A stretch of DNA of 64,000 nt from a bacterium Ga0077546 (lineage in GTDB: Bacteria > Cyanobacteriota > Vampirovibrionia > Obscuribacterales > Obscuribacteraceae), in assembly GCA_943370275.1 (NCBI GenBank), contig CALRQI020000005.1:1541-65540 (forward strand), in the 5' to 3' direction. The notes under the pieces are model-generated. The model did no database searches. It was not told where the DNA came from and saw nothing but the letters and a program-made list of their open reading frames with translations. The position numbers and the translations under genes were made by a program. Within the stretch, counting starts at the first letter, position 1. Every line of letters starts with the position of its first letter. Below, piece by piece: positions 41,738 through 55,326 of this stretch.

Positions 41738-43441
41738 TTACTTCGGGTCTTTACTGTGACGCTCATAAACGTTATAGCGATAATTCCAATCGGCAAATTC
41801 TTTAGCACCGACGCAGCGTGAGTGATAGCGGGCCTCGCCCTGGCATTCATATTCAGCCAAAATTCGACCAATAATGCCAGCCTTTTCTAAACCATCGAAG
41901 GTCTGACCGCCTTCAACCACAATTACACCCGGTCGATTTCTATCAATATCGCTGCGCAACCGATCGAACATCATTTTCTTCGTGGCAGCAATCCAACCAA
42001 AGGGCTTGCCGACCATGTGATCCGCTAAATTATGAGCCTCGATATTTGCCAATGAGCTAAAAGCCTCAGTACTGATGAAATAGCCAGCAATTGGTTTCTC
42101 TGCCAGAGTATAGAGAGGAAAACCAGGCAGCAGTCGGCCATTGAGAATCATAATCGAATCGCCAGGCTGACAATATTTAGGAAAAACATCAGCCAATTCA
42201 ATATAAGTTGGATCGATCGCATTTGGCCCTGTCAAACAATTAACGTTATCACGGCGCTGCATTATCTCAAGAGAAATTAGAGTCAAGATAGCAATAGAAC
42301 AGGCAACCGCAAGAGAGACTGACTGCACCCTAGGCAGGCGACTATAGGAGAGCTTAGGATAACGTCGAGAGATGCTAGAGAAGAAACTACTCTCAAGCAA
42401 ATATAAAAACTGCACAGAAAAGCACATGCAAGTAGCCCAAATCACTAGCAAGATGTCGCTACTCAAGCCGCTCATGCCCATTTGATAGAGAACAAAGCCG
42501 GCCATCATCAATGCCATAATAGGTCGCAATGAAGGCAGACGATTAACAATACCAAAGCTGACAATGGCTGCTGCCGTGCAGGCATAAATCACATCACGAC
42601 GGTCAGGGGTGGCGCCCAGGCCAAAATAAGCAATTTGATCTAAATAGTAGCTGGTAATTTTAAGAGGAATGATCCAATCGAAAAGCTCTTTGAGAGCAGC
42701 TTGATTGAGCTGCAACAAATAAGACCAGGAGAGGAGAAATGAGATTAAAAGCCAAAAGAACTCATCTGCAACTGAGTTTGCTTTACCAAGTAAACGGAGA
42801 CTAAGAAATTCTGCCGCCTCAATTGTAATGGGCACGATTATAAACAGCGGATCTAGAGAAGCAGCAAAACCAGCAAGAATTCCAGCGAAAAAGCCAGGCC
42901 AGTGATTACTAGTTTTGCTCAAACTAACGCCAGGCGAAAGCCAGGCAGTGAGACGCAAGAAAAAGTATGGGCTTAGCAGCAAGCTAAAGATATGCTGAGC
43001 GCAACCATAAGAGAAACCCATAGCAAAATTAGCTATCGAAAAGCCAATCAGGGCAAACCACAATTGCATTTGTCTGCGCTGCTCTAACCTGCTGGTGACA
43101 ATTATATAGATACAAAGAGCAAACGAAAGCGTCGCCAGTAGTGACACTTCAACAAATGAAGCTAAAGCAATGGCATTGAAAGGGAGCACAGCAGCGCTGC
43201 TGTGGGCTGAAAGCAACTGAGCCAACAAAACAGCTGGCATACGCAAGAAAACAAGAGTGAGTGGTGCATCAAAATAGAAATCACGAAAGGGAACTTGACC
43301 ATGAAGCATGCGATTGGCCGCTTCTATTTCGTAACAGATCGAACCAGCAAGATCATCCAGAAAAAAGGCTCGAACAACTATGCTCAGGGCAAAAACAGCC
43401 AGAGCAGTGCAAACTACAAATAAATTTTGCTTACTAGTCAT
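41738..43441 (-). CDS. GT-C-like polytopic membrane protein with a C-terminal globular domain, paralog 1
   Basis: 567 aa with about 11 TM. The first-loop motif is HGQVPFRDFYFDAPL. It overlaps the upstream gene stop by 8 nt. Confidence 0.85.
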   Translation of the reverse strand: MTSKQNLFVVCTALAVFALSIVVRAFFLDDLAGSICYEIEAANRMLHGQVPFRDFYFDAPLTLVFLRMPAVLLAQLLSAHSSAAVLPFNAIALASFVEVSLLATLSFALCIYIIVTSRLEQRRQMQLWFALIGFSIANFAMGFSYGCAQHIFSLLLSPYFFLRLTAWLSPGVSLSKTSNHWPGFFAGILAGFAASLDPLFIIVPITIEAAEFLSLRLLGKANSVADEFFWLLISFLLSWSYLLQLNQAALKELFDWIIPLKITSYYLDQIAYFGLGATPDRRDVIYACTAAAIVSFGIVNRLPSLRPIMALMMAGFVLYQMGMSGLSSDILLVIWATCMCFSVQFLYLLESSFFSSISRRYPKLSYSRLPRVQSVSLAVACSIAILTLISLEIMQRRDNVNCLTGPNAIDPTYIELADVFPKYCQPGDSIMILNGRLLPGFPLYTLAEKPIAGYFISTEAFSSLANIEAHNLADHMVGKPFGWIAATKKMMFDRLRSDIDRNRPGVIVVEGGQTFDGLEKAGIIGRILAEYECQGEARYHSRCVGAKEFADWNYRYNVYERHSKDPK

Positions 43442-45113
43442 TACGCTTATAAATACTTATGCCGCCTTTCTCATCTATTTTTTTGTAGTTAGCCATGCGC
43501 GTATTGATAAAATCAACATCGCCGAAAACCCAACTCATAGGATTGTCTTGAATGTAAATTAGCTTCGGTCTATTTTTCTCAATATCCTCTGTATACCAGT
43601 CAATAACTTGCTTCTTGTAGCCCTTAAATTTCTCCTTGGCCCTGGCATCAAGCTCCGGTTTATCAATAATGAACGACAATATGGGCAGCATCATGCCGTG
43701 CAAAAATCGCGAAGCGGCCTTTCTTTCAGTCTGCAAAAGCACTGGATAGCCAGGAGCCATTGAGGCACAAATAAACAGAACAAAGTCGCCCTTACTGCTA
43801 TGTTCTAAGCACGAGCCAACAAACCAGTCCATGTCATCTACAGAGCCCATACCCCATTCAGGGTATCCGACCTGCACCAGGGGGTACGGTTGTCGGTTGC
43901 GCATCTCTTCGTCTTCACCTACTTGCACCGAATTCAAATAGATGCCACCACCAATAACAGAAGCAGCCGCCACAGCAACCGCCATGCCTGTCAATTTAGG
44001 TCGCCCCAAACCAATTGCCTTAAGCGGCAATAGCTGGTAGAGCAAAGCAGCTTCTACGGCAAGTGCCATGGTGTTTCCCATGCGCACAGCAATCATGTGG
44101 CAAGACCAGGCCTGACCGGCAAGAACAAAAACCACCGCCGACATAAACGAAAAAGCACAAAGTGCCAAAGGCAAGCTCGACGACTGAGCCAAGACTACAG
44201 CTAACAAAGAGGCAAGGGCTAAAAGAAGAAAATCAATTCGCCAAAAACTGGCCATATTGAATATGGGCGAAGTGACGTAATACTCGTAGCCTTCTTTATA
44301 GATTGGTACAACAAAATTGAAAAAGGCTCTTAGTTCTTGGGCTGGCAGGAAAATAAAATGCACAAGATAGACAGCAATCACCGCTACTGCAGCCAACACC
44401 TCAGGCGCAATGAAAGGTTTAAACTGACGCGTGCGCAGCCACCAAACAATTTCCGGTGCAGTAGCCATCAGCATAAAGTGCGGCTTAAGCGCAAGACCAA
44501 TACCGGCCAAAACTCCAGCAGCAATGCAAGGCCAACGACCAAGCTTAACGCCTTGCCAGCGCAAATAACGCAGCAAGAGAAAAGGAGCATAAGTAATGCA
44601 GAAAATATGTTCTCTTTGGCCAAAGTCAAGGCGCTGAATCTGATTGAAATAAGCAAAACCAATCAAGGCACATACACCGAGCACAAGTGCCCCAGTGCGC
44701 CTTGCTGCCACAAGAACCCAAAGCACAATAAAGCAACTAAGAAATTCAAGTAGAGAAACATAAATGGAAAAACTCAGTGGTATCGGCATATGGCACAGGC
44801 GAGAAAGCAACACAGGCAAAACCTGAATATAGATAGCCAAAGGCGGATTAACATCGAACATGTCTACATAAGGCACTTTGCCTTCAAGGAGAAGCTGGGC
44901 CATATGAACAAACAGACCTTGATCACAAAAGATCAACATCGGATGAGCAAACCACCAGCGTAGAGCCATAACAAGAAGCACAAGAGTGAGGGAGCCAGCC
45001 GCCAACAAGACCACAATCGACAAATCGCTAGGCATGGGCTGACCGTCTACATTCTTGTAATCGTGCAGCTCTTGCTGTTCAAGCTCATTTGCTTCTTCGC
45101 CTAGCAAGGCCAT
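43434..45113 (-). CDS. GT-C-like polytopic membrane protein with a C-terminal globular domain, paralog 2
   Basis: The loop motif is CDQGLFVHMAQLLLEGKVPYVDMFDVNPPL. The ATG at 45113 lies 1 nt after the upstream stop. The ORF track extension to 45206 would overlap the upstream gene by 92 nt. Confidence 0.85.
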   Translation of the reverse strand: MALLGEEANELEQQELHDYKNVDGQPMPSDLSIVVLLAAGSLTLVLLVMALRWWFAHPMLIFCDQGLFVHMAQLLLEGKVPYVDMFDVNPPLAIYIQVLPVLLSRLCHMPIPLSFSIYVSLLEFLSCFIVLWVLVAARRTGALVLGVCALIGFAYFNQIQRLDFGQREHIFCITYAPFLLLRYLRWQGVKLGRWPCIAAGVLAGIGLALKPHFMLMATAPEIVWWLRTRQFKPFIAPEVLAAVAVIAVYLVHFIFLPAQELRAFFNFVVPIYKEGYEYYVTSPIFNMASFWRIDFLLLALASLLAVVLAQSSSLPLALCAFSFMSAVVFVLAGQAWSCHMIAVRMGNTMALAVEAALLYQLLPLKAIGLGRPKLTGMAVAVAAASVIGGGIYLNSVQVGEDEEMRNRQPYPLVQVGYPEWGMGSVDDMDWFVGSCLEHSSKGDFVLFICASMAPGYPVLLQTERKAASRFLHGMMLPILSFIIDKPELDARAKEKFKGYKKQVIDWYTEDIEKNRPKLIYIQDNPMSWVFGDVDFINTRMANYKKIDEKGGISIYKRND

Positions 45114-45114
45114 G

Positions 45115-45708
45115 CTAAGCACTCCAAAGGTCGATATTGTATTGCTTGGTACAGATGGCATCCATAACAATGTCATCGGCAGCCATCTGTTTTTTGTAGG
45201 CCGCAATATCCTCAGGCCGACCTTGAAGTTCAGGCGAAACCAGGCAGAGCTTGAAATTAGCTTCTTTCAAGCGTTTATAGTCTTTCTTATCTAGAGACAA
45301 ACGAGTGAAGCAATCAATCCAAACCCACTCAACTAAGCCCGAAAAGTTGAGAACCGTTTCTATGGTCTCAAACTCTGAATAACGCAGAGCAATGCGCTTC
45401 TCTCCGCGCTTAGTCAGATTGACAATCATGGGCAGGGATGAATCAAGGAAGAAATAGTTCTCGATTTTATACTTCTGCATCAAAGGCAAAATCGTCTCTT
45501 CTATGCGCTCGCTTTTAACATTCAAAATCAGAGTGCCATGATTGTTGTACTCAGCGAAGAAAGGCTCGGCATCCTCACCATCCTTAAAGGGGTCATGCTG
45601 TAAAATCAAACGTTCACCACGGTCACGCAAATCAATCTCGCAACCAAACTGAGCCGGAACCTGACGCAATGCTTCTAGTTGATTAATGCGATGGGCAATG
45701 AAGTGCAT
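45115..45708 (-). CDS. GDPD / PLC-like phosphodiesterase superfamily protein
   Basis: 197 aa. IAHRIN...GCEIDLRDRGERLILQHDP matches the HR...E.D...HD catalytic layout of glycerophosphodiester phosphodiesterases. Confidence 0.7.
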   Translation of the reverse strand: MHFIAHRINQLEALRQVPAQFGCEIDLRDRGERLILQHDPFKDGEDAEPFFAEYNNHGTLILNVKSERIEETILPLMQKYKIENYFFLDSSLPMIVNLTKRGEKRIALRYSEFETIETVLNFSGLVEWVWIDCFTRLSLDKKDYKRLKEANFKLCLVSPELQGRPEDIAAYKKQMAADDIVMDAICTKQYNIDLWSA

Positions 45709-46452
45709 TCAAATTTCCTTTGCTGAGTGACTAAGCGAGTGCTTCAGTTTGATACTAAAATCGATGGTGCGTTTGATGAATTTTACTTTCGACTTAAAGC
45801 CTGTGTTCCACTTAGACTCGCCGTGAATGCGGGGAGGAAAGACCACGTCAAAGCGGACGATATTGAGATTCTTTTGCCTGGCCATGTAATAGGCATACAG
45901 ATCTAAAGCAAAGTCATTGGGCGGCTGAGTCCACGACTGAAAGAAAGAACGATGAAAAATATTAGGCTGAGCATTGATATCCCAGAGATTGGTGCCCATG
46001 AAACAAGTCTCGAATAGACTCATGCCGCCGGTAAAAAACGAGTCAGATAGAGGTCTACCACGGCGCAAACCCTTAACGTAAATATCTTCAGGGTAGTTGG
46101 CTTGCCTAATTAGATCAATGGCTTTGACAATATCACTGGGATCGGTCTGCATATCGGCGTGAGTCCAACCGATATAATCACTCTGGCAAGCACGCAAACC
46201 TTCCAGTATGCCAAAGCCATAACCTTGATTAACAGGCACTCTTAGTGACCGGGCAAAAGAAAACTGTGGCAGCTGACTGGCTAAAGTAGCTGGGCTATCA
46301 TCAGTAGAGCCGTTATCAACTAAAAGTAGCTCAACTTGCGAACTATCATTGGCAGTGATTTTCTCAAAACGACTGAGAATCAGCGGAATATTTTTCGACT
46401 CGTTATAACATGGCATTACCACAGTAAAGGTCTGATTCTTTGAATTTGTCAT
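45709..46452 (-). CDS. Glycosyltransferase family 2, Dpm1/ArnC-like (polyprenyl-phosphate sugar synthase type)
   Basis: VVMPCYNESKNI, LLVDNGSTDDS and HADMQTDP motifs. No C-terminal TM. Confidence 0.88.
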   Translation of the reverse strand: MTNSKNQTFTVVMPCYNESKNIPLILSRFEKITANDSSQVELLLVDNGSTDDSPATLASQLPQFSFARSLRVPVNQGYGFGILEGLRACQSDYIGWTHADMQTDPSDIVKAIDLIRQANYPEDIYVKGLRRGRPLSDSFFTGGMSLFETCFMGTNLWDINAQPNIFHRSFFQSWTQPPNDFALDLYAYYMARQKNLNIVRFDVVFPPRIHGESKWNTGFKSKVKFIKRTIDFSIKLKHSLSHSAKEI

Positions 46453-48119
46453 GCCTGAATCTTGCTGACCTCCTTCTTATACTCATGCCATGAGCACTTA
46501 CGGAAAAACGACTGCCAGTAAGCAAAGGTCTTAAGATCATTGGGTATGCCAAATGAGATGTAGTCGATTACTTCAAAGACCACGCATTTGAGGCCAGAAT
46601 CAGCTAAGACACCAACCATACTATCAACATAAAACTCGCCGTTGACACGAATATCTTGTTCAAGCATCACCTTCATTGCTTGATCAAAATATTTTGCCTT
46701 GCGAAAGAAAAAGGCACCAACAATGGCATGATCAGCGCGCGGATTATCTGATATTGCCTTCTTCACCGAAACACCAGTGATAACAGGAAATTCAACTGGG
46801 GCACTCTCATCTGCAGGCGCAACTTTAAGCCAACCAAACATCTGCGGGTTTCGTTCACTAGATGGATGATTACGGAAACTAAAAGCAGCCATATCGATAG
46901 ATTGATCTGCCATCAGGGCTTGCCACTTACTGTGGTCGTAAACAATACCGTTATCGCAGGCACCAATCAACAAACTGGCCTCAGGGTCAATAGCTGGATC
47001 AGCTCCATCAATGCCGAGCTTACAAGAAGAAGCCTGGCCGGCAGTGATACCATCGATAGCTACCACACTAACATTAGGAAACTGCTCAGTCAGTATCCCT
47101 TTCAATTGCGAATTATCAAGGTGCTCTTTCTGTGCGACGAAGACATAACGAGTCGCTGGCGGCAAATTATCGCAAGCAAGCACCACCATGGGCTTGTTGG
47201 AAACAGGAATTAGTGGCTTGGGCGTTAAATAGCCCACATCGGCAAAACGAGAGCCTTTGCCCGCCATTGGAATAAGACAGGTGTTAACTAGAAGAGAATC
47301 TTTGGCTGTGGCCGGGCGATTCTTTCGCCCTGTGCGCGGCTCGTCTTCTGAACCTTCATGGGCCAGTCTTGTGAAATAGTCAGACCAGTGTTGATACTCT
47401 TCGAGATCACGAGGAGTGCCCCATTGCAGCATGTAGTCAACTTCGTAGACTGAGACACGAAGACCATCGGCCACCATGAGGTTGTAAATCATACTGACAT
47501 AGTATTCACCATTGACCTGAATATCTTGCTTCATCAACTCTTGGAAGTAGTGCTTGACGTACTCTCCCCGGGCAAAATAATACGTACCGTTTGAGGCAAA
47601 CTCAGCCATGCGATTATCAGTAAATGGCTTCTTCTCTTGAATCGCTTCCAACCAAAGGTTCTTCTCTTTGATAAAGGCATAGTTATCAGTGCCAAGCATA
47701 TGCGGATGAAAGTTGCGGTAAGCTGGAACTGAGCCGGCAGCTTTTCGACTACGCGTCTTAGCTAAGAAGTCAGAGTAGTGCCAATAGGAATAGAAATCAC
47801 AATAGTTGACGATTGTCTCTTCGCTCGAATCTATTCGATCTAAACACTGCCCAACGGCATAAACAGGACCTTTGCGATGGGTATTAATGGTAATTATTTC
47901 AGCCTGCGGAGCAATACGATTGAGTACCTCTGCTAAATTTGTCTCAGTCATATGCTCGCAGTTGCAGACAAAAGTAAACTTATCGGCAGGAGAAAACATT
48001 GAGACCACATGCTCAATCATCGGCTTGCCGTCTACTTCGATTAATGGTTTAGGCAGCTTGTAGCCAGCTTTTATAAAGCGCTCACCAAGTCCAGACATAG
48101 GAATTACAACATGGGTCAT
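46449..48119 (-). CDS. Tandem double sugar-phosphate nucleotidyltransferase
   Basis: 556 aa with two homologous halves. Each starts with a nucleotidyltransferase signature (VIPMSGLGERFIKAGYKLPKPLIEVDGKPMIEH; LIPMAGKGSRFADVGYLTPKPLIPVSNKPMVV). Each ends with the VNGEYYV...(10-11 aa)...(D)GL motif. Confidence 0.85.
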   Translation of the reverse strand: MTHVVIPMSGLGERFIKAGYKLPKPLIEVDGKPMIEHVVSMFSPADKFTFVCNCEHMTETNLAEVLNRIAPQAEIITINTHRKGPVYAVGQCLDRIDSSEETIVNYCDFYSYWHYSDFLAKTRSRKAAGSVPAYRNFHPHMLGTDNYAFIKEKNLWLEAIQEKKPFTDNRMAEFASNGTYYFARGEYVKHYFQELMKQDIQVNGEYYVSMIYNLMVADGLRVSVYEVDYMLQWGTPRDLEEYQHWSDYFTRLAHEGSEDEPRTGRKNRPATAKDSLLVNTCLIPMAGKGSRFADVGYLTPKPLIPVSNKPMVVLACDNLPPATRYVFVAQKEHLDNSQLKGILTEQFPNVSVVAIDGITAGQASSCKLGIDGADPAIDPEASLLIGACDNGIVYDHSKWQALMADQSIDMAAFSFRNHPSSERNPQMFGWLKVAPADESAPVEFPVITGVSVKKAISDNPRADHAIVGAFFFRKAKYFDQAMKVMLEQDIRVNGEFYVDSMVGVLADSGLKCVVFEVIDYISFGIPNDLKTFAYWQSFFRKCSWHEYKKEVSKIQA

Positions 48120-49252
48120 AGGCTCTGCCTGTATTTCTCAGCTTCCCAATTGCTCAAATAATCGACTTCTTCTTGGGCCAGATAGGTCATGTCATAAAGC
48201 TCCCCACCCATTTGTAGCATGACGTGGGAGCGCAAGACTTCTTCACTTTCTCGACACTTGCGCAAACTCTGCCCGAGAAGCAAAATATGCTCGCCCGAAA
48301 TGATCACCTTAGGCGGATGGCCAAACTTCTGCAAATAATCAGCCACAGATTGCACCGCTGAGGCACTATCAAAGTCAGCCAGAGCCAATCCACTAGCACC
48401 ACAGTAAACCAGTTGATCGGGCGTGGCACATGGGGCCAGCAAATAGGCGGAATTGCGCCTCAGGGCATCTTGGAGAATATGGTCATCACTTAAATAGGCT
48501 AACCACTTGGTGCCACAAACTTGATTAACGAGAGCAGAGGCAAAATTAACTAGTTTATAGCGATAAAGGTTGAAAGCCAGCTCGTTGGCCAGTTTGTCTA
48601 CCACTTCATTGGTAATCTGCATCACCACTTGCTTATTGGCACCAGCCACAATCAGGCCATGGTTCTCTAGAAATACAATGGCTAGACTGGCCTTATCAGT
48701 GCTAGCAGGTTGCCAGTTCTTCTCTCTGAGCTGCTGCTGAAGAGCCACAGCTAAGGCTGGCCCTGGAGTTTTATAAGAAACAAGAAAGAGTGAATCTTGA
48801 TACTGCGGAAACTCACTAGCAAAAATATCTGTCACTATCTTCTGCCAATTCTTGCGACAAACCAGGGCAGCCACAGCTATTGGATGGGTGTGAAGAGTAT
48901 ATTTTCCCAGTAAGCAATGCAGGAGCGCTTCAATCGATGGCCGTCTACTACTAGAAGCAACTGGCGTAAGAGCAGCAGCCACAGCGACTTTGGCCTGGGC
49001 CTCAAGCGCTTCAACTGAAAGATTAGCATCACAAGCAGACAAGAACTGCAGCAAAGGAGGCCATTGCAACAAGCAAAAATCAGCCTCAGAGCCGACTTCG
49101 CTCAGTGCCATACCAGAAGCTTTAACAAAAATGCGGCCATCGTCGAGCTTGACTGATGTGTTACCGCCACCGGCTTGTACCAGATCGAAACGCTCTCCAG
49201 CAAAACGCGATACTTCTATGAGATCTGCTATTTCAGTTTCTATGGCGTTCAT
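48116..49252 (-). CDS. Class II aldolase/adducin-fold protein (aldolase or sugar-phosphate epimerase-like)
   Basis: VQAGGGNTSVKLDDGRIFVKASG and LHTHPIAV motifs. ATGA overlaps at both ends. Confidence 0.75.
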   Translation of the reverse strand: MNAIETEIADLIEVSRFAGERFDLVQAGGGNTSVKLDDGRIFVKASGMALSEVGSEADFCLLQWPPLLQFLSACDANLSVEALEAQAKVAVAAALTPVASSSRRPSIEALLHCLLGKYTLHTHPIAVAALVCRKNWQKIVTDIFASEFPQYQDSLFLVSYKTPGPALAVALQQQLREKNWQPASTDKASLAIVFLENHGLIVAGANKQVVMQITNEVVDKLANELAFNLYRYKLVNFASALVNQVCGTKWLAYLSDDHILQDALRRNSAYLLAPCATPDQLVYCGASGLALADFDSASAVQSVADYLQKFGHPPKVIISGEHILLLGQSLRKCRESEEVLRSHVMLQMGGELYDMTYLAQEEVDYLSNWEAEKYRQSL

Positions 49253-49941
49253 TTTTTTACCAACTCGAGCAACTGAAGAAAATCATCGAAAATAGTAACA
49301 CCGCGCATGTCGGCAATGGTCTGAATACTTCCAGTTTCAGTATTGAGCCAATAGCAGTCAAGACCAAGTTTGCGGGCACCTTCGATATCACGCTCAAAGC
49401 TATCACCAATCATACAAAGAGCGGTCAAGGGCAAGTCGAGCTTCTGCGCAGCCAATTCAAATATGCGCCGGTGCGGTTTTTCGTGGCCGCTCTCTTCACT
49501 GGTAACAATAGCCTGCAAATAAGTGGCAATTTTCAAGTGAGCAATTTTGTCAAACTGAACCCTTGCTGTTAAATCAGTGACTATAGCAATTGGCAAACCT
49601 ACCGACTGAAGAAAAGCAAGACAGCCAGGACGCAGCTGCATATTGTCAAAAAACGTTCGCCAATAGAGATCTTCAGCAGCTCCTGCTAATAAATGAGGGA
49701 AGCGGCCAAAGGCCTCGGCTATGCCTTGAAAATAAAGCAATCTACTGTGGGAAGAAGCCAAGCCGTGCAGACTCTTATTGACTCGACTGCGGCAAGCAAC
49801 ATACTGAGCCTCTACCGCTTCAAGCCCCTGCTCAAGCTCTGCAGCCAGCCACTGCAAAGCAGCAGCAATAGCCGGTTCGTGAGCCTGTTTATAGTCATAG
49901 ACTGTATTATCGAGATCAAGGAGAATGCCTTTAGGCTTCAT
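49249..49941 (-). CDS. HAD-superfamily hydrolase (phosphatase)
   Basis: Motif I LLDLDNTVYDY, motif II VTDLT, motif IV GDSFERDIEGA. Confidence 0.88.
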   Translation of the reverse strand: MKPKGILLDLDNTVYDYKQAHEPAIAAALQWLAAELEQGLEAVEAQYVACRSRVNKSLHGLASSHSRLLYFQGIAEAFGRFPHLLAGAAEDLYWRTFFDNMQLRPGCLAFLQSVGLPIAIVTDLTARVQFDKIAHLKIATYLQAIVTSEESGHEKPHRRIFELAAQKLDLPLTALCMIGDSFERDIEGARKLGLDCYWLNTETGSIQTIADMRGVTIFDDFLQLLELVKK

Positions 49942-52153
49942 GCATTTCTTCCTTGTCTTTCATCAAGTCGTTGATGATAAGCAAAATAATCAACTGCACA
50001 AAGCCACGCAAATCTTCTGCCCACTCAATTTTATTCTCGACTAACTCTTCTAAATTAGGAATCATGTCACTAGCTAATTTTTGCAATAACGCTGGTGGCA
50101 CTGGTTCTGAGAGAGTCAAATCTTGCTTTGATAGATTCTCGCTGTAGTCCCAATGTAAAAGCAAGCCATTAGCCATAAGCTCTTGCACTAAATCTTCGAG
50201 ATGAATACTTGAACTTAGGGACAACTTGAGCGACAGCTTAGCCTGAGCTGTTAAAGAGCCTTCATCAAGCAAAGCCTGAGGATAATAGCGAATACAGAGA
50301 TCGGCAAACTCTCTCTGGGGAGAAATAAATTTGTCGGCGTCATTTTTTCGGCGATTGATCTGAGCATTAGCCTGCTTCTCGCTATAGCCTCGTTCGCGGT
50401 GATCGCGACTGACTTTCCAAAAAGTCTTAAGCTCTGCTTCTGGATCCATGAAAATTTTCAGATCAATTACTTTTCGCGACTTAGGCAAATAGAAAGTGTG
50501 TAAGCCAGAAAGGACAATAAAATCGTTGGGCTCAATCACCCGAGCGCTTGTAAAGGCACCAGTTGAGTGATCATAGTCAACACGCTCAACACTGCGTCCG
50601 CGCTTCAAATTGAAGAGTGTATCGGCCTGCCTGTGGAGGAAATTGGCTTTTGGATCAAGATGGGTAATGTCTTTTTTCCAATTTTCGTCGTGGCGAGCCC
50701 ATTTATGATCAGCGTCACCTTCAAGCTCAACCACGCGATTCTGCAGTAAGGCCTTTATGTCTTTGAGCAGTGTCGACTTACCAGCACCACTATCTCCACC
50801 AATACCAATGACGATAGCTCTTTCGCGCTTATAAATTGAATTACTGCGCACACCAGTACGATAGCAAAGCACGATATTGGCAAGCAAGGTTGCTTCAAGC
50901 AGAGTAAAGGCCAGAGAAGAAAGGTGCTCGCCAGGAATGCCTAAATTCCAAACATTACCGCAAAACATAATGGCCGGATAATCGAAGTGATGGAAAAAGA
51001 GAAAATAGAAAAGATAGAAGCAAGAAAGGGCCATACCAGCCGGCACAATGCGGCTGTCACGGCGGCTATATTTGATCATGAAAATGCTGAGAAAAGGCAC
51101 AATCCAAACGTACCAGCCGGGCGCAGGCACAATTAGAGCGACAAATAAAGCAAAGACAATATTGAGGAAGGCATCTAGTAAGTCAAGATTGATTTTGGGA
51201 TAGAGGGCAAAGCGCACATAGGTGCTGCACACCGCCAGAACTGGCAAGAAAATATGCATTGAGCCAATGCTAATGTAAGACTCAAAGATCTGGCTCTGCT
51301 TGGGATTATGCAAAACTATGGCCTGAAAACCGGCCGAAAACAAAAAGGGATAAACCCAGAAGATAAGCATGAGAAGCGAACAGACGAGATAGAGCCCGGC
51401 CATCTTGGGCTTCTGATTGCGATAGATATAAGTGATACACAGGGGCAGGGCTGCCGCCACGTGCGACTTTGTCGCCAGAGCCAAACCAAAAAGTAGTGCC
51501 GATTTAAGCGTGTCGTTTTTGCGCAAGAAATAAACAGCAGAAAACAGTATCGCCGTTGGTATCAAATCTAGCTGTGAGTGAATGTAGCAGGCATAAAATA
51601 TGATTGGCGAAAGAAAGTAATACCAGAATACTTTGTTGACTCTTGCTGGAAACATTTTGACCAAGAGGAAGGCAATCAAAATATCGCTAAGAAGAGTGGG
51701 CAATTTCATAAAGAAATTGACCAAATAGGTATTTTCGAAACCAACAAGTTTCAGAGGCAGACAAAAGAAAGCGACAATATAAAGCATCAGCGGCTGATAA
51801 GGAAATTGATCACGCTGTGTGGTGGTTTGAAAATAGAAATCCCAAGGGTTGTCAAAGTGACTGATAAAGTGCTGAACAAACGGCACAAATAGCTGGTTCA
51901 TATAACCAGACGAAAAAAGCACCATCAGCAAAACCTTGGCAAAAACCACAAGCGCAAAAGCGCTGAGGCCAATTGGGGCCACAGACTTGAGAGCAGCGCC
52001 TGCTGTGGCGCCGTCGAGCTTATCTGCTGGATTCAAAATCGGTTTTGCTTTTGCTTCCATCAACCCTGCTTGATCACTTTCTATTTTGATATGCCCGCTC
52101 TTTGGCGGCGGACCACTACTTACAACCACATCAAAACAATCGACTGCGGCCAA
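49931..52153 (-). CDS. Fusion protein: GT-C/DUF2029-like polytopic membrane domain + C-terminal uridine kinase/phosphoribulokinase-family P-loop kinase
   Basis: 740 aa with about 12 TM in the first 440 aa (loop motif RDQFPYQPLMLYI). This is followed by AIVIGIGGDSGAGKSTLLKDI and a Udk/PRK-like body. The track uses a TTG start (52153); an alternative ATG is at 52060. Confidence 0.85.
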   Translation of the reverse strand: MAAVDCFDVVVSSGPPPKSGHIKIESDQAGLMEAKAKPILNPADKLDGATAGAALKSVAPIGLSAFALVVFAKVLLMVLFSSGYMNQLFVPFVQHFISHFDNPWDFYFQTTTQRDQFPYQPLMLYIVAFFCLPLKLVGFENTYLVNFFMKLPTLLSDILIAFLLVKMFPARVNKVFWYYFLSPIIFYACYIHSQLDLIPTAILFSAVYFLRKNDTLKSALLFGLALATKSHVAAALPLCITYIYRNQKPKMAGLYLVCSLLMLIFWVYPFLFSAGFQAIVLHNPKQSQIFESYISIGSMHIFLPVLAVCSTYVRFALYPKINLDLLDAFLNIVFALFVALIVPAPGWYVWIVPFLSIFMIKYSRRDSRIVPAGMALSCFYLFYFLFFHHFDYPAIMFCGNVWNLGIPGEHLSSLAFTLLEATLLANIVLCYRTGVRSNSIYKRERAIVIGIGGDSGAGKSTLLKDIKALLQNRVVELEGDADHKWARHDENWKKDITHLDPKANFLHRQADTLFNLKRGRSVERVDYDHSTGAFTSARVIEPNDFIVLSGLHTFYLPKSRKVIDLKIFMDPEAELKTFWKVSRDHRERGYSEKQANAQINRRKNDADKFISPQREFADLCIRYYPQALLDEGSLTAQAKLSLKLSLSSSIHLEDLVQELMANGLLLHWDYSENLSKQDLTLSEPVPPALLQKLASDMIPNLEELVENKIEWAEDLRGFVQLIILLIINDLMKDKEEMHEA

Positions 52154-52202: not shown

Positions 52203-52682
52203 CTACTTAGAGCCAGTGCCTTCTGGATAGTAAAGGAAATCGCAGCGGAATGGCGCAGGAGCTTCTTTGAAATCAGCAGGCAAAGGAGCAAAGGGAGACT
52301 GTGTTTTGACCGAGTCAACAGTTCTCTCAATAGCCCGTTGACCACCGGTGGCACTGACCGTATGAACATCGGTGCAAAGGCCTGGTCGAGTAATTAGAAA
52401 TTCAACGGCTACGCTGTAGCGGTGGTCAGACTTAAGTGGCCGCCAACCCTCTGCCAGGCGGTTCTGCAAATCGATGCAGTAGCGCTGCTGTTCAGGGGTA
52501 TAGCTGTGTTCGCTCACTGGCGAAACCATGACTTTGTGAGGACCAACTGGCTTGCTCGGCTCGGCACTAGTTGTAGTTGTGGTAGTGGTGGTCTTGTCTC
52601 CAACTTTATCGGTCTTACTGCATCCAGTCACTATGACAGCCGCAGGGATAAGCAATGAACACAAGAGAACCGACAGGCGCAT
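52203..52682 (-). CDS. Lipoprotein with a poly-Thr linker and a TonB/TolA C-terminal-like domain
   Basis: Lipobox VTGC, a TTTTTTTT linker and a C-terminal ...FAPLPADF... pattern. The family call is tentative. Confidence 0.65.
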   Translation of the reverse strand: MRLSVLLCSLLIPAAVIVTGCSKTDKVGDKTTTTTTTTSAEPSKPVGPHKVMVSPVSEHSYTPEQQRYCIDLQNRLAEGWRPLKSDHRYSVAVEFLITRPGLCTDVHTVSATGGQRAIERTVDSVKTQSPFAPLPADFKEAPAPFRCDFLYYPEGTGSK

Positions 52683-52838: not shown

Positions 52839-53288
52839 CTAATGCTCCATAGCTTCCACCGGTCGCCTAATTTGAGCGCCAACGCAAAGGCCGTCATTAA
52901 AATCGAGGTCGAGATATGCCTCTTTCAGCCCCCGGCTCATGACATAGCTCAACTGCACAACTTTGTTGTCAATCACTTTCTTCTCACACAGACGAGTGCC
53001 TAGTAGCTTTTCAAGCTGTTGAACATCTTTGCCGATCAGTCGTCCCGAGCCAATCAAGTCGTGAACCATTGAATAGCGTGTCGGACCAACCCCAAAATCC
53101 CAAATCTCGCTATTAAAAGGCAACGGTGTGGGATCTTGCACGAACGAAATAGCCAGTACTGCGATGGCAATCAAGAGAATTAACTCTATGGCCAACAACC
53201 ACTTAAATATAGGCCGAGTCTGCCACAAAGTTTTGAAGTCAAGTTTACTCAAGGTCTGCTGCCCAAGTCCTATCATGCAATTCATCAC
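52839..53288 (-). CDS. Membrane-anchored hypothetical protein
   Basis: 149-aa ORF with one TM (WLLAIELILLIAIAVLAISFV). Confidence 0.55.
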   Translation of the reverse strand: MMNCMIGLGQQTLSKLDFKTLWQTRPIFKWLLAIELILLIAIAVLAISFVQDPTPLPFNSEIWDFGVGPTRYSMVHDLIGSGRLIGKDVQQLEKLLGTRLCEKKVIDNKVVQLSYVMSRGLKEAYLDLDFNDGLCVGAQIRRPVEAMEH

Positions 53289-53347: not shown

Positions 53348-53412
53348 TAAAATACAAATATTGAAATACGGATTTTGAAGTACGAATATTGAAATGCAAA
53401 ATATGGAAATAC
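53342..53412. repeat. Five tandem ~14-bp AT-rich repeats spanning the arsR 5' region and start codon
   Basis: AAATATTAAAATAC | AAATATTGAAATAC | GGATTTTGAAGTAC | GAATATTGAAATGC | AAAATATGGAAATAC. Both candidate arsR ATGs (53394, 53403) lie inside the array. Confidence 0.8.
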
Positions 53413-53780
53413 AATCGGTACTAAACGCCTTTGGCGCTCTTTCGCAAGAATCGCGCTTAAACGTCTTTCGCCTTTTAGTACAACGCGGCCCTGACGGTCT
53501 GGCCGCTGGCACAATAGCCGCTCAGTTGGGCATAACACCGGCCACCATGTCACACCACCTAGAGCAATTGAGCCAAGCCGGGCTTGTTTCTTCAAGACGG
53601 GAAGGACGCTCAATCATCTACAGCGCCAAGTACGACACGATGCAAAGTCTCATCAATTTCCTCATGGAAAATTGCTGCGAGGGAAAAATTGACTGCTGCA
53701 GCGAAACTAATACCTGTGATGAACCCAATATCTGCAACGAGAAAACTAGCTACAACGCAACCGTTGAGGAAAAAACTTGA
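53394..53780 (+). CDS. arsR: ArsR-family metalloregulator with a Cys-rich C-terminal tail
   Basis: ESRLNVFRLL...TMSHHLEQLSQAGLVSSRREGRSIIY HTH. There is no CVC in the alpha3 position. The tail is ENCCEGKIDCCSETNTCDEPNIC. Confidence 0.9.
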   Translation: MQNMEIQSVLNAFGALSQESRLNVFRLLVQRGPDGLAAGTIAAQLGITPATMSHHLEQLSQAGLVSSRREGRSIIYSAKYDTMQSLINFLMENCCEGKIDCCSETNTCDEPNICNEKTSYNATVEEKT

Positions 53781-54181
53781 AACTAATCTTCGCCTGCGTC
53801 CACAATGCTGGGCGCTCACAAATGGCTGCCGCCTACTTCAATCAATACAGTGACAGCAGTAAGGCCTGTGCTGTATCAGCTGGTACTAATCCTGGTGCAA
53901 CGGTGCACCCAGAAGTGCTGCAAATAATGAAAGAGGATGGTATCGATCTCTCTGAAGCTAAACCGCAACTGCTCACCGACGCTCTCGCAGCAGACGCTGA
54001 TATGCTCATCACCATGGGCTGTGGCGAAACCTGCCCTATGATTCCAGGACTAAAAAAAGTCGACTGGGCTTTGCAAGATCCCAAAGGGCAATCTATTGAG
54101 CGCGTTCGAGAAATTCGAGACGAAGTGAAACAACTTGTACAAAATCTTGTCAAAGAATTAGGCGTTGCCAATGAGCGCTAA
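53777..54181 (+). CDS. arsC: Arsenate reductase, LMW-PTP (thioredoxin-coupled) type
   Basis: CX5R(S) loop FACVHNAGRSQMA. The TTG start overlaps the arsR stop. Confidence 0.9.
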   Translation: MKLIFACVHNAGRSQMAAAYFNQYSDSSKACAVSAGTNPGATVHPEVLQIMKEDGIDLSEAKPQLLTDALAADADMLITMGCGETCPMIPGLKKVDWALQDPKGQSIERVREIRDEVKQLVQNLVKELGVANER

Positions 54182-55259
54182 AAAACTCCAAGGCGCAGAC
54201 AACGACACAAGCCAGCCGAGCATAGGTTTCTTTGAGCGCTGGCTCACAGTCTGGGTTTTTCTCTGCATTGGTGCAGGGATAACCCTGGGGCAATTAATGC
54301 CAGGGCCAATGAGGTTAATCGGCTCACTTGAGATCGCCAGAGTAAACATACCTGTTGGTCTCTTAATCTGGCTCATGATTGTGCCTATGCTTTTAAAGAT
54401 TGACTTTGGCTCCCTTGGGCAGGTCAAAAGTCACTGGAAAGGCATAGCAGTGACCCTTTTCATTAACTGGGCGGTGAAACCATTTTCGATGGCCTTGCTT
54501 GCCTATATATTTATTCGTGTAATTTTCGCCCCATACCTTCCCCCTGCACAGATTGACAGCTATGTCGCCGGACTAATCCTACTGGCGGCAGCACCATGCA
54601 CAGCCATGGTCTTTGTCTGGAGCCAGCTGACAAAGGGTGATCCCTACTTCACTCTTTCGCAAGTAGCAGTGAACGATCTGATCATGATATTTGCCTTCGC
54701 ACCAATTGTCGGTCTGCTGCTCGGCCTATCCTCAATAACCGTTCCCTGGGACACCTTGCTGATCTCGGTTGGTCTGTACATTGTCATACCAGTGCTGCTT
54801 GCCCAAGCGTGGCGAAGCATATTGCTAAAGCAAGGGCAGGAAAGCTTTGACAAGACTCTTGAAATGCTGCACCCGCTTTCACTTGCGGCGCTACTCACTA
54901 CCCTAATTTTGCTCTTTGCCTTTCAAGGCGAAGCGATTCTCAAGCAGCCACTTGTAATAGCAATGCTGGCAGTGCCGATTTTGATTCAAGTCTTTCTCAA
55001 CTCCACTTTTGCCTACTTACTGAACAAGCATTTCGGAGTTGCTCACTGTGTCGCCGGCCCCTCGGCCCTAATCGGAGCGAGCAACTTCTTTGAACTAGCG
55101 GTGGCTACTGCCATCAGCCTATTTGGCTTCAATTCAGGGGCAGCGCTCGCCACCGTAGTTGGTGTATTAATTGAAGTGCCAGTAATGCTTGCCGTTGTCA
55201 AAATCGTCAACAGCAGCAAAAGCTGGTACGAAAAAGGCCTTCCAGAAAATCAAAGTTAA
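54165..55259 (+). CDS. acr3: Arsenite efflux permease, ACR3 family
   Basis: 364 aa with about 10 TM. The ERWLTVWVF...AAAPCTAMVFVW motif is typical of Acr3. Confidence 0.93.
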   Translation: MPMSAKKLQGADNDTSQPSIGFFERWLTVWVFLCIGAGITLGQLMPGPMRLIGSLEIARVNIPVGLLIWLMIVPMLLKIDFGSLGQVKSHWKGIAVTLFINWAVKPFSMALLAYIFIRVIFAPYLPPAQIDSYVAGLILLAAAPCTAMVFVWSQLTKGDPYFTLSQVAVNDLIMIFAFAPIVGLLLGLSSITVPWDTLLISVGLYIVIPVLLAQAWRSILLKQGQESFDKTLEMLHPLSLAALLTTLILLFAFQGEAILKQPLVIAMLAVPILIQVFLNSTFAYLLNKHFGVAHCVAGPSALIGASNFFELAVATAISLFGFNSGAALATVVGVLIEVPVMLAVVKIVNSSKSWYEKGLPENQS

Positions 55260-55326
55260 ATACTTGCAAGCAAGGAACAGAGACTAAACTCAAGAGTCTT
55301 TCCAATACAGCGACAGGAGCAAAGCC

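Follow-up and report, generated by a model that had tools for sequence, protein, structure and literature searches.

Within the 64,000-nucleotide stretch of DNA that was analyzed (the window), positions 41738 to 52153 hold an eight-gene operon whose core appears to be a so far undescribed gene cassette. On balance we think that this self-contained, horizontally mobile cassette uses a lipid carrier to add a rare sugar to an envelope glycan. The best reading of the sequences is a Gtr/Arn-type polyprenyl-phosphate/GT-C glycan modification with a new precursor route, which would lead from ribulose-5-phosphate (Ru5P) through ribulose-1,5-bisphosphate (RuBP) and ribulose-1-phosphate (Ru1P) to a nucleotide-activated pentose or pentulose. 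The cassette thus appears to bring a Calvin-cycle-type kinase into the synthesis of an unusual activated five-carbon sugar for the cell envelope.

All eight open reading frames (O1 to O8) lie on the minus strand, to which all gene coordinates below refer. Their coordinates and junction sequences were re-derived and reproduce the overlaps of 11, 4, 4, 4, and 8 nt and the gaps of 0 to 1 nt given in the initial annotation. O1 and O2 overlap by 11 nt; the O2/O3, O3/O4, and O4/O5 junctions are the three predicted 4-nt overlaps, each reading ATGA; O5 and O6 abut with a 0-nt gap; O6 and O7 are 1 nt apart, counted with ATG 45113 and not the longest possible TTG 45206 as the O7 start; and O7 and O8 overlap by 8 nt. 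Independent gene calls for the same locus on three metagenome contigs gave the identical eight genes. The start of O1 is ambiguous (TTG 52153 yields 740 aa and ATG 52060 yields 709 aa), and the first ~30 residues are unconserved, with a pLDDT of <50. A convergent CysRS gene lies 347 nt downstream of the operon.

The core consists of six genes, encoding a membrane-domain/phosphoribulokinase (PRK) fusion, a HAD phosphatase, a class II aldolase-fold protein, a tandem nucleotidyltransferase, a short GT2, and a 197-aa GDPD-fold protein. Of the 49 related loci flanked by 6 kb or more on either side, 40 carry these first six genes on one strand, 30 of them in the order seen here, an arrangement that is not due to chance. 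The proposed eight-gene set therefore holds for its six-gene core, whose neighborhood is conserved, but not for the O7/O8 pair, which is confined to Obscuribacterales relatives. Hosts of the core belong to Cyanobacteriota (Obscuribacterales and Gastranaerophilales), Bacteroidota, Campylobacterota, Bacillota, Acidobacteriota, Planctomycetota, Nitrospirota, Omnitrophota, SAR324, TM6, and Gammaproteobacteria. Complete cassettes are present beside IS26 on the Escherichia coli IncR plasmid NZ_CP145712.1 and on an Azospirillum brasilense plasmid, and a Hirschia baltica plasmid has a full-length O4 match; a DNA-level search of 5426 complete E. coli genomes, which is insensitive, returned two plasmids only and no chromosomal match. 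Judging from this distribution, the cassette is widespread and horizontally mobile. In Flavobacterium, Halobacillus, and Azospirillum it is enclosed by polysaccharide clusters (O-antigen/EPS context). Of 57 cassettes, 25 include GtrA and 40 have one or more additional large polytopic membrane proteins, some of them PMT_2-like; no GtrA was found within the window. Some loci lack a member of the core: O3 is missing from three otherwise complete cassettes (L078, L079, and L084), the HAD gene from three loci, and O6 from two TM6-like loci that keep the PRK, HAD, aldolase, and nucleotidyltransferase genes. Co-conservation across phyla, the GtrA and GT-C-like neighbors, and the O-antigen/EPS surroundings agree with the earlier assignment of one coupled unit to an unassigned nucleotide-sugar/polyprenyl-phosphate/GT-C envelope glycosylation pathway. 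That the set maps to no described pathway also stands: our searches gave no characterized cluster with this gene content, and the literature search found no paper describing this gene set.

The domain content that had been read from motifs in O1 to O6 was confirmed by Pfam, NCBIfam, PDB sequence matches, and Foldseek. O1 (49931..52153; Pfam PRK, 124.9 bits) is, as annotated, a polytopic membrane domain fused to a kinase, and the fusion is kept in ~66 orthologs across phyla (AF2 model pLDDT, 85). Its membrane domain (50831..51973, ~residues 30 to 410 of the 709-aa form) resembles PIG-M/ALG3/GT87 proteins. The first loop of this domain has a conserved F-P-Y-x-P-L motif, D126, D165, and K198 are invariant, its profile matched GPI mannosyltransferase 1 (23gx_B; E value, 3.5e-4; 154 residues) among PDB sequences, and O1 homologs matched Pfam ALG3 (25.7 and 24.9 bits; cut-off, 23.6) and GT87 (24.2 bits). 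By this similarity the membrane domain is itself GT-C-like (PIG-M/ALG3), a feature absent from the initial annotation. JGI names a fusion homolog “uridine kinase/Gpi18-like mannosyltransferase,” and both NCBI and JGI use the label “uridine kinase.”

The kinase domain (49931..50815) had been placed in the uridine-kinase/PRK family; it proved to be PRK-like and not generically uridine-kinase-like, scoring 193 bits against the NCBIfam model PRK07429 (cut-off of 236 not reached) versus 72 bits for uridine kinase. PRKs were matched among PDB sequences (E values, 1e-34 to 1e-25) and were the best Foldseek matches (target-normalized TM scores, 0.61 to 0.78). The kinase shares with PRKs the motifs D-x-x-H...R, LDP(K/R)AN, Y(D/N)HxTG, GLH, and WKxxRDxxERG, and the catalytic Asp/His dyad of PRK (PMC9978339) aligns with O1 D449/H498, both invariant in the homolog alignment. 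Motifs, dyad, and fold thus characterize it as phosphoribulokinase-like, with Ru5P as the predicted substrate. A Calvin-cycle role is unlikely in E. coli, one of the cassette hosts.

O2 (49249..49941) is the HAD-superfamily phosphatase claimed initially, with a DxDxT motif and Pfam Hydrolase/HAD_2 matches; its HAD motifs are conserved among orthologs. The best NCBIfam match is NF053830, the haloarchaeal RuBP 5-phosphatase (145.8 bits; E value, 1.5e-42; cut-off of 330 not reached). As the O1 kinase and O2 both score under the NCBIfam cut-offs, their substrates could differ, for example, being another ketose phosphate. Together, a PRK-like kinase and a HAD protein closest to RuBP 5-phosphatase suggest a concrete entry point into the pathway, namely, Ru5P, which the initial annotation did not give. 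In haloarchaea, the RuBP phosphatase that yields Ru1P shares an operon with a FucA-type aldolase for Ru1P (PMC9700705), and an equivalent trio logic seems to recur in the cassette. O3 (48116..49252) has the class II aldolase fold deduced before from GGGNTSVK and HTHP (Pfam Aldolase_II, 55.6 bits); its metal site is intact, and ~170 aa extend it at the C terminus. The aldolase half of bifunctional rhamnulose-1-phosphate aldolase/SDR proteins is its closest match (67 bits, below the equivalog cut-off). The motifs GGGNTS, PSIE, HTH, and NHG are conserved in 69 orthologs, and the metal ligands and phosphate-binding motif of ketose-1-phosphate aldolases are retained. Since three otherwise complete cassettes lack it, O3 more probably acts as a modifier (epimerase) than as a required step.

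O4 (46449..48119) consists, as noted initially, of two nucleotidyltransferase halves (N half, 47307 to 48119; C half, 46449 to 47306), which match Pfam NTP_transf_3 in two stretches and are 28% identical to each other (E value, 8e-40). GxGxRF...KPL is invariant in both halves in the homolog alignment, and the catalytic signatures are intact. The closest structure is 4evw; IspD-type models match weakly. O4 is found without the kinase in cyanophages and two loci. O5 (45709..46452; Pfam Glycos_transf_2, 67.3 bits) is a short GT2 of the polyprenyl-phosphate glycosyltransferase type with a conserved H-A-D-M-Q-T-D-P motif. The earlier view of it as a soluble Dpm1/ArnC-type enzyme was upheld: ArnC was the best match among PDB sequences, followed by chondroitin synthase, DPMS, GpgS, and GtrB, and no hydrophobic segment was detected. 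O6 (45115..45708, 197 aa), which gave no Pfam match, is modeled as a minimal TIM barrel with a GDPD/PI-PLC-like phosphodiesterase fold (AF2 pLDDT, 93.7). The best Foldseek matches were the GDPDs 3ks6/1zcc (E value, 5e-6; TM score, 0.71), in line with the GDPD/PLC-like assignment. Its H6, R7, E24, D26, and H38 are invariant and its mean column identity is 64% across phyla; it is soluble, without a membrane segment, and adjoins the GT2 in 56 of 65 loci.

O7 (43434..45113) is a 559-aa polytopic membrane protein with ~7 hydrophobic segments, a conserved G-x-x-P-Y-x-D...NPPL after TM1, and a C-terminal soluble domain; its family numbers 2089 representatives at E values of ≤1e-3. O8 (41738..43441, 567 aa) is its paralog (BLASTP, 23% identity over 487 aa; E value, 1e-19). 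Of the initial description as paralogous GT-C-like proteins, the paralogy is borne out, while the GT-C assignment is not, O7 having no Pfam or PDB match. We regard O7 as a possible lipid-carrier-dependent transferase whose family lacks annotation.

In our model, the PRK domain of O1 would phosphorylate Ru5P at C1 on the cytoplasmic side, and O2 would remove the 5-phosphate from the resulting RuBP to leave Ru1P. The net effect would be a phosphate shifted from C5 to C1, following the logic of HldE/GmhB heptose activation. O3 may then reversibly open or epimerize the ketose-1-phosphate, e.g., towards the xylulose configuration, a step that is presumably optional because some cassettes lack O3. 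O4 would make the nucleotide-activated form, the role of its second half being a guess, and O5 would load the sugar on polyprenyl phosphate. Because the phosphate of a ketose-1-phosphate is not anomeric, the step from NDP-sugar to GT2 should need extra chemistry; the adjacent O6 might process an intermediate or a by-product of the GT2 step, either a phosphodiester or a cyclic phosphate, which is likewise a guess. Flipping of the lipid-linked sugar would fall to GtrA in many other hosts and to some other protein here. The GT-C-like domain of O1 would then transfer the sugar to the envelope acceptor, as O7 and O8 probably would in Obscuribacterales. The putative topology places the O1 kinase inside and the catalytic loop outside.

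How Ru1P becomes a glycosyl donor can be envisaged in several ways. A specific version of our best explanation, which we consider unlikely in this form, is a “phosphate walk” to a ketopentofuranose donor. One O4 half would activate Ru1P, or its O3-made epimer, to NDP-1-pentulose; PI-PLC-like O6 would let the anomeric 2-OH attack the phosphate, giving NMP and a pentulofuranose 1,2-cyclic phosphate that is opened to the 2-phosphate; and the other O4 half would form NDP-2-pentulofuranose, a true glycosyl donor from which O5 makes polyprenyl-P-ribulo- or xylulofuranose. This scheme rests wholly on inference. It is the sole one to employ every core protein, including both intact O4 sites and O6 with its invariant H-R/E-D/H, and it accounts for the need for a C1 phosphate and for a C5-OH free for furanose closure. 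In O3-less cassettes the HAD product would pass directly to the nucleotidyltransferase, and cassette L005 contains in addition an IMPase and a gene of the 2H/DUF1045 cyclic-phosphodiesterase family. Ru1P has been observed in cyclized form (PMC9700705), and D-xylulofuranose occurs in several bacterial glycans (PMC8707391), for which the literature searched gave no biosynthetic route. However, O6 is linked with the GT2 and not with the nucleotidyltransferase, and the two TM6-like cassettes do without it. Xylulose in known glycans is moreover part of the main chain and not a Gtr-type side branch (PMC8707391), and E. coli O95 contains xylulose, yet the insensitive DNA-level search gave no chromosomal match for the cassette, although O95 perhaps lies outside the set searched. 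An aldopentofuranose donor, which we hold to be unlikely, would explain why some lineages can do without O6. There, O3 or O4 would turn Ru1P into a ribo- or arabino-configured aldopentofuranose-1-phosphate, O4 would form an unstable NDP-pentofuranose, and O5 would yield polyprenyl-P-pentofuranose, a PRPP-independent counterpart of decaprenyl-P-arabinose; O6 would have a repair function, reopening the furanose 1,2-cyclic phosphate that arises from nucleotide-sugar decay, a role that also fits the second cyclic-phosphodiesterase-family gene in L005. GT-C enzymes classically use polyprenyl-P-pentofuranoses (Emb/Aft; MtxS/MtxT for methylthioxylose), and O5 is similar to ArnC, DPMS, and GtrB. But to our knowledge ketose-1-phosphates are isomerized to aldose-1-phosphates by the MtnA/R15P-isomerase family, not by class II aldolases; O3-less cassettes would miss the key step, two active nucleotidyltransferase halves are left without a reason, and ribose-1-phosphate is cheaper from nucleosides.

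Phosphate migration is unnecessary if the product of O4 is an NDP-(pentulose-1-phosphate) donor comparable to CDP-ribitol or CDP-glucitol. O6 would then serve as a phosphotransferase, placing pentulose-phosphate on a common sugar that O5 has loaded on polyprenyl phosphate, and the GT-C protein would deliver the product. Cytidylyltransferases for ketose- or alditol-phosphates exist (e.g., for CDP-6-D-fructose and CDP-glucitol in Campylobacter jejuni HS:5; PMC10918830). The weak IspD-type matches of O4 and the adjacency of O6 to the GT2 agree with this phosphodiester decoration, which we nevertheless judge very unlikely, with two nucleotidyltransferase halves unexplained and O6 soluble. GDPD-fold enzymes are hydrolases or lyases, and we know of none that serves as such a transferase. 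Least probable, in our view, is that ribulose phosphates are not the substrates of the kinase, phosphatase, and aldolase, which would instead use a nucleoside, a lipid-linked intermediate, or some other ketose phosphate, or that the three make up a catabolic shunt of the pentose-bisphosphate type that happens to lie beside glycosylation genes. The PRK and RuBP-phosphatase scores below curated cut-offs, the “uridine kinase” label of the databases, and the kinase-free occurrences of O4 would fit; the PRK-specific motifs, dyad, and fold of the O1 kinase and its PRK-over-uridine-kinase score speak against it, and the fusion to a GT-C-like domain and co-conservation with the GT2 and nucleotidyltransferase across phyla argue against accidental co-location.

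The preferred reading, lipid-carrier-based decoration from Ru5P, has its closest parallels in Gtr (GtrA/GtrB/GtrC), ArnC/ArnT, and PpgS/Rv3779, where a Dpm1/GtrB/ArnC-like GT2 loads polyprenyl phosphate and a polytopic GT-C-type enzyme transfers the sugar outside. The parallel with Gtr O-antigen glucosylation extends to GtrA inside related cassettes, to mobility (plasmids and IS26), and to a location in or near O-antigen clusters. Unlike these systems, which draw on a housekeeping or separately made UDP-sugar, the cassette has its own four-enzyme precursor route and a GDPD-like enzyme, its GT2 is short and without C-terminal membrane helices, and the enzyme for the first step carries a fused GT-C-like domain; the window has no GtrA. 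In the haloarchaeal non-carboxylating pentose bisphosphate pathway (Sato et al. 2022, PMC9700705), too, the genes for a HAD phosphatase and a class II aldolase-family protein neighbor that of an enzyme forming RuBP, with Ru1P as the intermediate common to that pathway and the proposed route. That pathway is catabolic, obtains RuBP from R15P isomerase, and ends in DHAP and glycolaldehyde (PMC9700705). In the cassette, by contrast, RuBP would come from PRK, the genes are joined to nucleotidyltransferase, GT2, and GT-C genes, O2 and O3 fall under the equivalog cut-offs, and O3 is nearer to rhamnulose-1-phosphate aldolase domains.

As in the GmhA/HldE/GmhB route to ADP-heptose, the order of kinase, phosphatase, and nucleotidyltransferase would move a phosphate to the nucleotide-bearing position, although all enzyme families differ and the phosphate would end on the non-anomeric C1 of a ketose, requiring further chemistry. 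Mycobacterial decaprenyl-phospho-arabinose and MtxS/MtxT offer a polyprenyl-phosphate-borne five-carbon sugar with GT-C delivery and a short Dpm1-like GT2 gene beside a GT-C gene; their precursors are PRPP or methylthioadenosine, and, unlike the cassette, they have no PRK, tandem nucleotidyltransferase, or GDPD-like protein. The O1 kinase itself agrees with Calvin-cycle PRK in motifs, in the catalytic dyad, and in a fold that extends to the C-terminal sheet domain, the closest solved structure being the “cyanobacteria-specific PRK” paralog (PDB 9qkn/9qko). It differs from the Calvin-cycle enzyme in scoring under the curated family cut-off, in its fusion to a 400-aa membrane domain within a glycosylation operon, and in its occurrence in non-autotrophs and on plasmids.

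The operon consists of eight minus-strand ORFs, O1 to O8, which encode in order a fusion of a membrane domain to a kinase (O1, 49931-52153), a HAD phosphatase (O2, 49249-49941), a class II aldolase-fold protein (O3, 48116-49252), a tandem nucleotidyltransferase (O4, 46449-48119), a short soluble GT2 (O5, 45709-46452), a GDPD-fold protein (O6, 45115-45708), a polytopic membrane protein (O7, 43434-45113), and its paralogue (O8, 41738-43441). Read from the sequence, O1 and O2 overlap by 11 nt, the O2/O3, O3/O4, and O4/O5 junctions are ATGA overlaps, the gap between O5 and O6 is 0 nt, O6 and O7 are 1 nt apart when the ATG at 45113 is taken as the O7 start, and O7 and O8 overlap by 8 nt. Gene calls on independent metagenome contigs yield the identical eight-gene set; the succession of coupled ORFs described in the initial annotation was accurate. 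O1 starts either at a TTG (52153) or at an ATG (52060), its ~30 N-terminal residues being unconserved and modeled with low confidence. A promoter and terminator scan across the operon gave promoter-like sites at chance level and 24 terminator-like sites against 14.8 ± 3.4 expected, which are weak and scattered within genes.

Convergent GluRS and CysRS genes lie downstream of the operon, while two small unannotated ORFs and then a divergently oriented ars operon lie upstream. The small ORFs (52203-52682 and 52839-53288) are on the cassette strand (minus) just upstream of O1, and neither has a Pfam match; the former combines a lipoprotein-like signal (…VTGC) with a stretch of eight threonines. 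According to Pfam annotations of an identical contig, the arsenic-resistance operon is complete (53394-57578, plus strand) and encodes ArsR (53394-53780), an LMW-phosphatase-type ArsC (53777-54181), an Acr3/SBF permease (54165-55259), ArsD (55327-55791), and ArsA (55785-57578), all on the plus strand. The window contains no tRNA genes or Rfam matches, and no GtrA is encoded among the eight ORFs or the adjoining ones.

A profile of O4 was scanned against one genome per GTDB species, which gave 198 loci; 80 were retrieved and searched with the window proteins by tblastn, and co-occurrence was counted. Of the 49 loci flanked by no less than 6 kb on each side, 40 carry all of O1 to O6 on one strand. 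The window gene order is kept in 30 of these 40 complete loci, and in nine, all from Flavobacteriaceae, the kinase fusion has shifted to the end. The fusion itself is conserved among the related loci, and the GT2 and O6 genes adjoin in 56 of 65. Neighborhood conservation of the eight-gene set had been proposed as a check; co-conservation holds for the six-gene core, but not for O7 and O8, which were found in Obscuribacterales relatives only. Near-identical loci (97 to 99% identity) come from “Candidatus Obscuribacteraceae” and Obscuribacterales metagenome-assembled genomes, non-photosynthetic relatives of Cyanobacteria.

The six-gene module is widespread, with a full-length O4 relative in at least 198 GTDB species representatives and thousands of 90%-identity protein clusters in metagenomes. 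Its hosts include non-photosynthetic orders of Cyanobacteriota, Bacteroidota, Campylobacterota, Acidobacteriota, Planctomycetota, Nitrospirota, Bacillota (Paenibacillus, Halobacillus, Virgibacillus, and Fusibacter), Omnitrophota, SAR324, TM6, Bacteriovoracales, and Gammaproteobacteria. The module is also plasmid-mobile. A complete cassette (L087), which also encodes GtrA and a membrane protein of 586 aa, resides beside IS26 on a 33-kb IncR plasmid of Escherichia coli S1-CAM-01-A (NZ_CP145712.1, 6022-14984); its genes are listed as nucleotidyltransferase, GtrA, GT2, GDPD-like, membrane-PRK, HAD, aldolase-like, and 586-aa membrane protein. An identical copy is carried by a plasmid of the bullfrog isolate E. 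coli ES3; these two plasmid copies are the only occurrences in 5426 complete E. coli genomes. An Azospirillum brasilense plasmid harbors a complete cassette flanked by gmd/fcl, ABC-transporter, and glycosyltransferase genes, and a Hirschia baltica plasmid has a full-length O4 match.

Accessory genes vary. GtrA is encoded inside 25 of 57 related cassettes, extra large polytopic membrane proteins, including PMT_2-like and DUF6798-containing ones, in 40 of the 57, and TylF-like methyltransferases and Acyl_transf_3 acyltransferases also occur. Six Flavobacteriaceae loci (L037, L040, L043, L045, L059, and L060), permuted with the kinase fusion last, carry two further genes: one for a 524- to 560-aa membrane protein ahead of the nucleotidyltransferase gene, and one for a TylF-like O-methyltransferase between the latter and the GT2 gene. 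Among core genes, the HAD gene is absent from three cassettes and O6 from two TM6-like loci. Candidates for an O6 substitute in the latter were the neighboring ORFs, which encode RecT, a metallo-beta-lactamase-fold protein, a GNAT, an APH, and unannotated proteins; the metallo-beta-lactamase-fold ORF was rejected as a stand-in, as hhalign aligned it to the O6 profile with a probability of 0.04%. In a locus of a 3.7-Mb genome (L005, 8445-10004), genes of the 2H/DUF1045 family (cyclic phosphodiesterases) and the inositol-monophosphatase family are inserted between the aldolase-like and nucleotidyltransferase genes, an arrangement that might point to an intermediate with a cyclic phosphate or two phosphates (a bisphosphate).

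O4 without the remaining core genes was seen in two loci and in some cyanophages. Synechococcus phage S-SM2 (L089, 8995-12303) and phage Bellamy encode a full-length tandem nucleotidyltransferase with 40 to 43% identity to O4. In these T4-like cyanophages a class II aldolase gene is a few genes away, within an LPS-like block with carbohydrate kinase, transketolase-like, phosphoheptose isomerase, and GT11/GT25 genes; the phages lack the kinase fusion, the GT2, and O6. A second, remoter O4-like family (26 to 32% identity over the full length), represented by plasmid matches H6 to H17 from Rhizobium, Azospirillum, Pseudomonas, and Acetobacter, is common on alphaproteobacterial plasmids, where its members carry the label [quoted passage not shown]

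The kinase domain of O1 matches PF00485 (phosphoribulokinase, PRK) at 124.9 bits (cut-off, 22), and its P-loop reads GGDSGAGKST. It scores 193 bits with NCBIfam PRK07429, under the cut-off of 236, and 72 bits with the uridine kinase model. Every strong PDB sequence match is a PRK, and an alignment including 6gve and 6hzk revealed the common motifs D-x-x-H-x-x-x-R, LDP(K/R)AN, Y(D/N)HxTG, GLH, and WKxxRDxxERG. The catalytic Asp/His dyad of PRK has been defined in a review (PMC9978339); its O1 counterparts, D449 and H498, are invariant in an alignment of 25 diverse homologues. An AF2 model of O1 (pLDDT 85) has the PRK fold, including the C-terminal domain, and the top 19 Foldseek hits are PRKs (E values of 1e-17 to 1e-11; target-normalized TM scores of 0.61 to 0.78). 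Of the earlier designation “uridine-kinase/PRK-family,” the PRK half is borne out by score, motifs, and fold, while the uridine-kinase half is not. By motif and model, the O1 kinase is phosphoribulokinase-like, not uridine-kinase-like, and is predicted to convert ribulose-5-phosphate (Ru5P) to ribulose-1,5-bisphosphate (RuBP). Among solved structures, those closest to this domain (49931-50815) are 9qkn and 9qko/9qkp, paralogues of recent release labeled “cyanobacteria-specific PRK,” and not the Calvin-cycle PRKs. A search of the open-access literature found no paper on 9qkn or 9qko; the physiological role of these paralogues might be related to the cassette.

O2 is matched by Pfam HAD models and conserves the DxDxT nucleophile motif as DLDNT. 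Its best NCBIfam match is ribulose-1,5-bisphosphate 5-phosphatase (NF053830), at 145.8 bits under a cut-off of 330, leading its other NCBIfam matches by about 47 bits. O3 matches PF00596 (class II aldolase/adducin; 55.6 bits, cut-off 22.2), and the motifs GGGNTS, PSIE, HTH, and NHG are conserved among 69 orthologues. It retains metal ligands (E, H, H, and H) and a phosphate-binding G-x-N-x-S, which we take to correspond to the metal and phosphate site of FucA. The nearest relatives of O3 are the aldolase halves of rhamnulose-1-phosphate aldolase/SDR fusions, although no equivalog cut-off is reached, and its sole solved relative is 3m4r (E value of 6e-4).

Taken together, the entry steps Ru5P to RuBP to ribulose-1-phosphate (Ru1P) appear, by analogy, well grounded: the PRK domain would phosphorylate Ru5P, and the HAD phosphatase would then release the 5-phosphate. 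The combined result of kinase and phosphatase would be a phosphate on C1 instead of C5, with the C5 hydroxyl free for furanose closure. A haloarchaeal trio of an RuBP-forming enzyme, an RuBP 5-phosphatase, and a class II aldolase-family enzyme has been characterized experimentally (PMC9700705). The cassette resembles it in that O2 is nearest to the RuBP 5-phosphatase and the class II aldolase-family O3 adjoins. An obligatory cleavage of Ru1P by O3 was rejected, since three complete cassettes lack O3; moreover, dihydroxyacetone phosphate is ubiquitous, so that PRK and HAD steps would be pointless if O3 split Ru1P. Because complete cassettes would otherwise lack an essential enzyme, we read O3 as a non-obligatory modifier of the epimerase type, and flux from Ru1P would instead proceed to the nucleotidyltransferase.

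O4 is an internal duplication, with halves 28% identical (E value of 8e-40) and PF12804 matches in two stretches. Each half has an NTP_transferase-type fold and the signature G-x-G-x-R...K, invariant as G10, G12, R14, and K24 in the N-terminal half and G287, G289, R291, and K301 in the C-terminal half. O6, of 197 aa, has no Pfam or NCBIfam match even at E values up to 10, and its profile retrieved nothing from PDB sequences; it is extremely conserved, with a mean column identity of 64% across phyla. Its family assignment came solely from AF2 and Foldseek: the model is a compact TIM barrel (pLDDT 93.7), nearest to the glycerophosphodiester phosphodiesterases 3ks6 and 1zcc (E value of 5e-6, TM score of 0.71). 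The invariant H6, R7, E24, D26, and H38 form an H-R/E-x-D/H catalytic pattern, and several homologues bear GDPD/PI-PLC-like phosphodiesterase names at NCBI. Fold and catalytic pattern thus agree with the initial annotation of O6 as GDPD/PLC-like, despite the lack of a Pfam match; no Pfam model covers this 197-aa GDPD-fold family.

O5 matches PF00535 (67.3 bits). Its top PDB sequence match is ArnC (3e-8), DPMS, GtrB, chondroitin synthase, and GpgS match as well, and it scores 42.6 bits with the ArnC equivalog model, against a cut-off of 529. It is short and soluble, without C-terminal membrane helices. Its proposed kinship to Dpm1/ArnC-type enzymes stands. In its metal motif, H-A-D-M-Q-T-D-P, a conserved His takes the place of the first Asp of D-x-D-x-Q-x-x-P.

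The N-terminal part of O1 is a polytopic membrane domain of ~400 aa. Pfam and NCBIfam yielded no match from its sequence alone, even at relaxed E values. A 23-member profile of the domain matched GPI mannosyltransferase 1 (PIG-M, 23gx_B) among PDB sequences (E value of 3.5e-4) over the first loop and the following helices; Pfam ALG3 is above cut-off in two O1 homologues, GT87 is just under it, and JGI labels one homologue “uridine kinase/Gpi18-like mannosyltransferase.” With the conserved acidic/aromatic first loop, these matches give a weak but consistent signal that the domain is GT-C-like. The AF2 model has 12 or 13 spans of ambiguous orientation, and the top 50 Foldseek hits of the full model are all kinases, leaving that search silent on the membrane domain. 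It is unusual for the first cytoplasmic enzyme to be joined to what would be the last transferase outside the membrane, and such a fusion suggests a coupling of supply and transfer.

Direct comparison of O7 with O8 confirmed the paralogy claimed for them. They belong to a large family of unannotated membrane proteins (2089 representative clusters) for which no Pfam model exists, and neither single sequences nor 14- and 46-member profiles gave a Pfam or PDB match; Pfam and NCBIfam searches with O7 and O8 stayed empty at relaxed E values too. Their architecture and a G-x-x-P-Y-x-D...PPL loop motif are the features that fit GT-C enzymes, making them GT-C candidates. An hhalign alignment of this family with the O1 membrane domain is in register, but its probability of 2 to 4% led us to reject it as evidence.

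We consider the type of system secure: like Gtr and Arn, the operon would modify glycans through a lipid carrier, with a polyprenyl-phosphate-loading GT2, GtrA in many versions, and GT-C-like transferases, and it carries its own precursor pathway. The originally proposed coupled nucleotide-sugar/polyprenyl-phosphate/GT-C unit is supported, and sharpened to a mobile six-gene core with PRK/RuBP entry and a GT-C-kinase fusion. A second active half of O4 and the GDPD/PLC-like O6, both peculiar to this cassette, probably supply the conversion of the ketose-1-phosphate to a glycosyl donor. Several bacterial glycans are known to contain xylulofuranose, and organisms with known ketopentose glycans are Devosia submarina KMM 9415, C. 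jejuni RM1221, E. coli O95, Y. enterocolitica O:10, and Lachnoanaerobaculum saburreum T15. The proposal that explains most, which we rate as unlikely to be correct, is that the cassette is the missing route to ketopentofuranose (ribulose or xylulose) residues. After the kinase and phosphatase steps, one O4 half and the PI-PLC-like O6 would shift the phosphate from C1 to the anomeric C2 via a 1,2-cyclic phosphate, the second O4 half would form an NDP-2-ketofuranose, and the sugar would pass to polyprenyl phosphate and on to the GT-C domain of the O1 fusion. Alternatively, the donor could be an aldopentofuranose and O6 could serve to repair cyclic phosphates, or the product could be a phosphodiester-linked pentulose-phosphate decoration. 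A link to the xylulose-containing E. coli O95 was sought by distant blastn in the 5426 complete E. coli genomes, the queries being the cassette from the E. coli plasmid and an O4 gene of gammaproteobacterial origin; no chromosomal O-antigen cluster matched and only the two identical plasmids were found, a search that is insensitive below about 65% DNA identity and thus not decisive.

PRK is otherwise regarded as an enzyme of the Calvin cycle and the archaeal RuBisCO pathway. The cassette would give it a second role in heterotrophs, the supply of RuBP and Ru1P to surface-glycan synthesis. It may also explain how rare pentose or ketopentose residues, which influence serotype as well as recognition by phages and the immune system, enter O-antigens and capsules. 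The copy on the 33-kb E. coli plasmid makes product and acceptor directly determinable in a tractable host.

We found no described counterpart of the precursor module, and a search of the open-access literature gave no papers that describe either this set of genes or how a ketopentose donor is made. The overall logic of the cassette matches that of GtrABC, ArnC/ArnT, PpgS/Rv3779, and the mycobacterial polyprenyl-phosphate-pentose pathways. It differs from the three-component Gtr system in that the window cassette is without GtrA, whereas 25 of the 57 related cassettes carry it.
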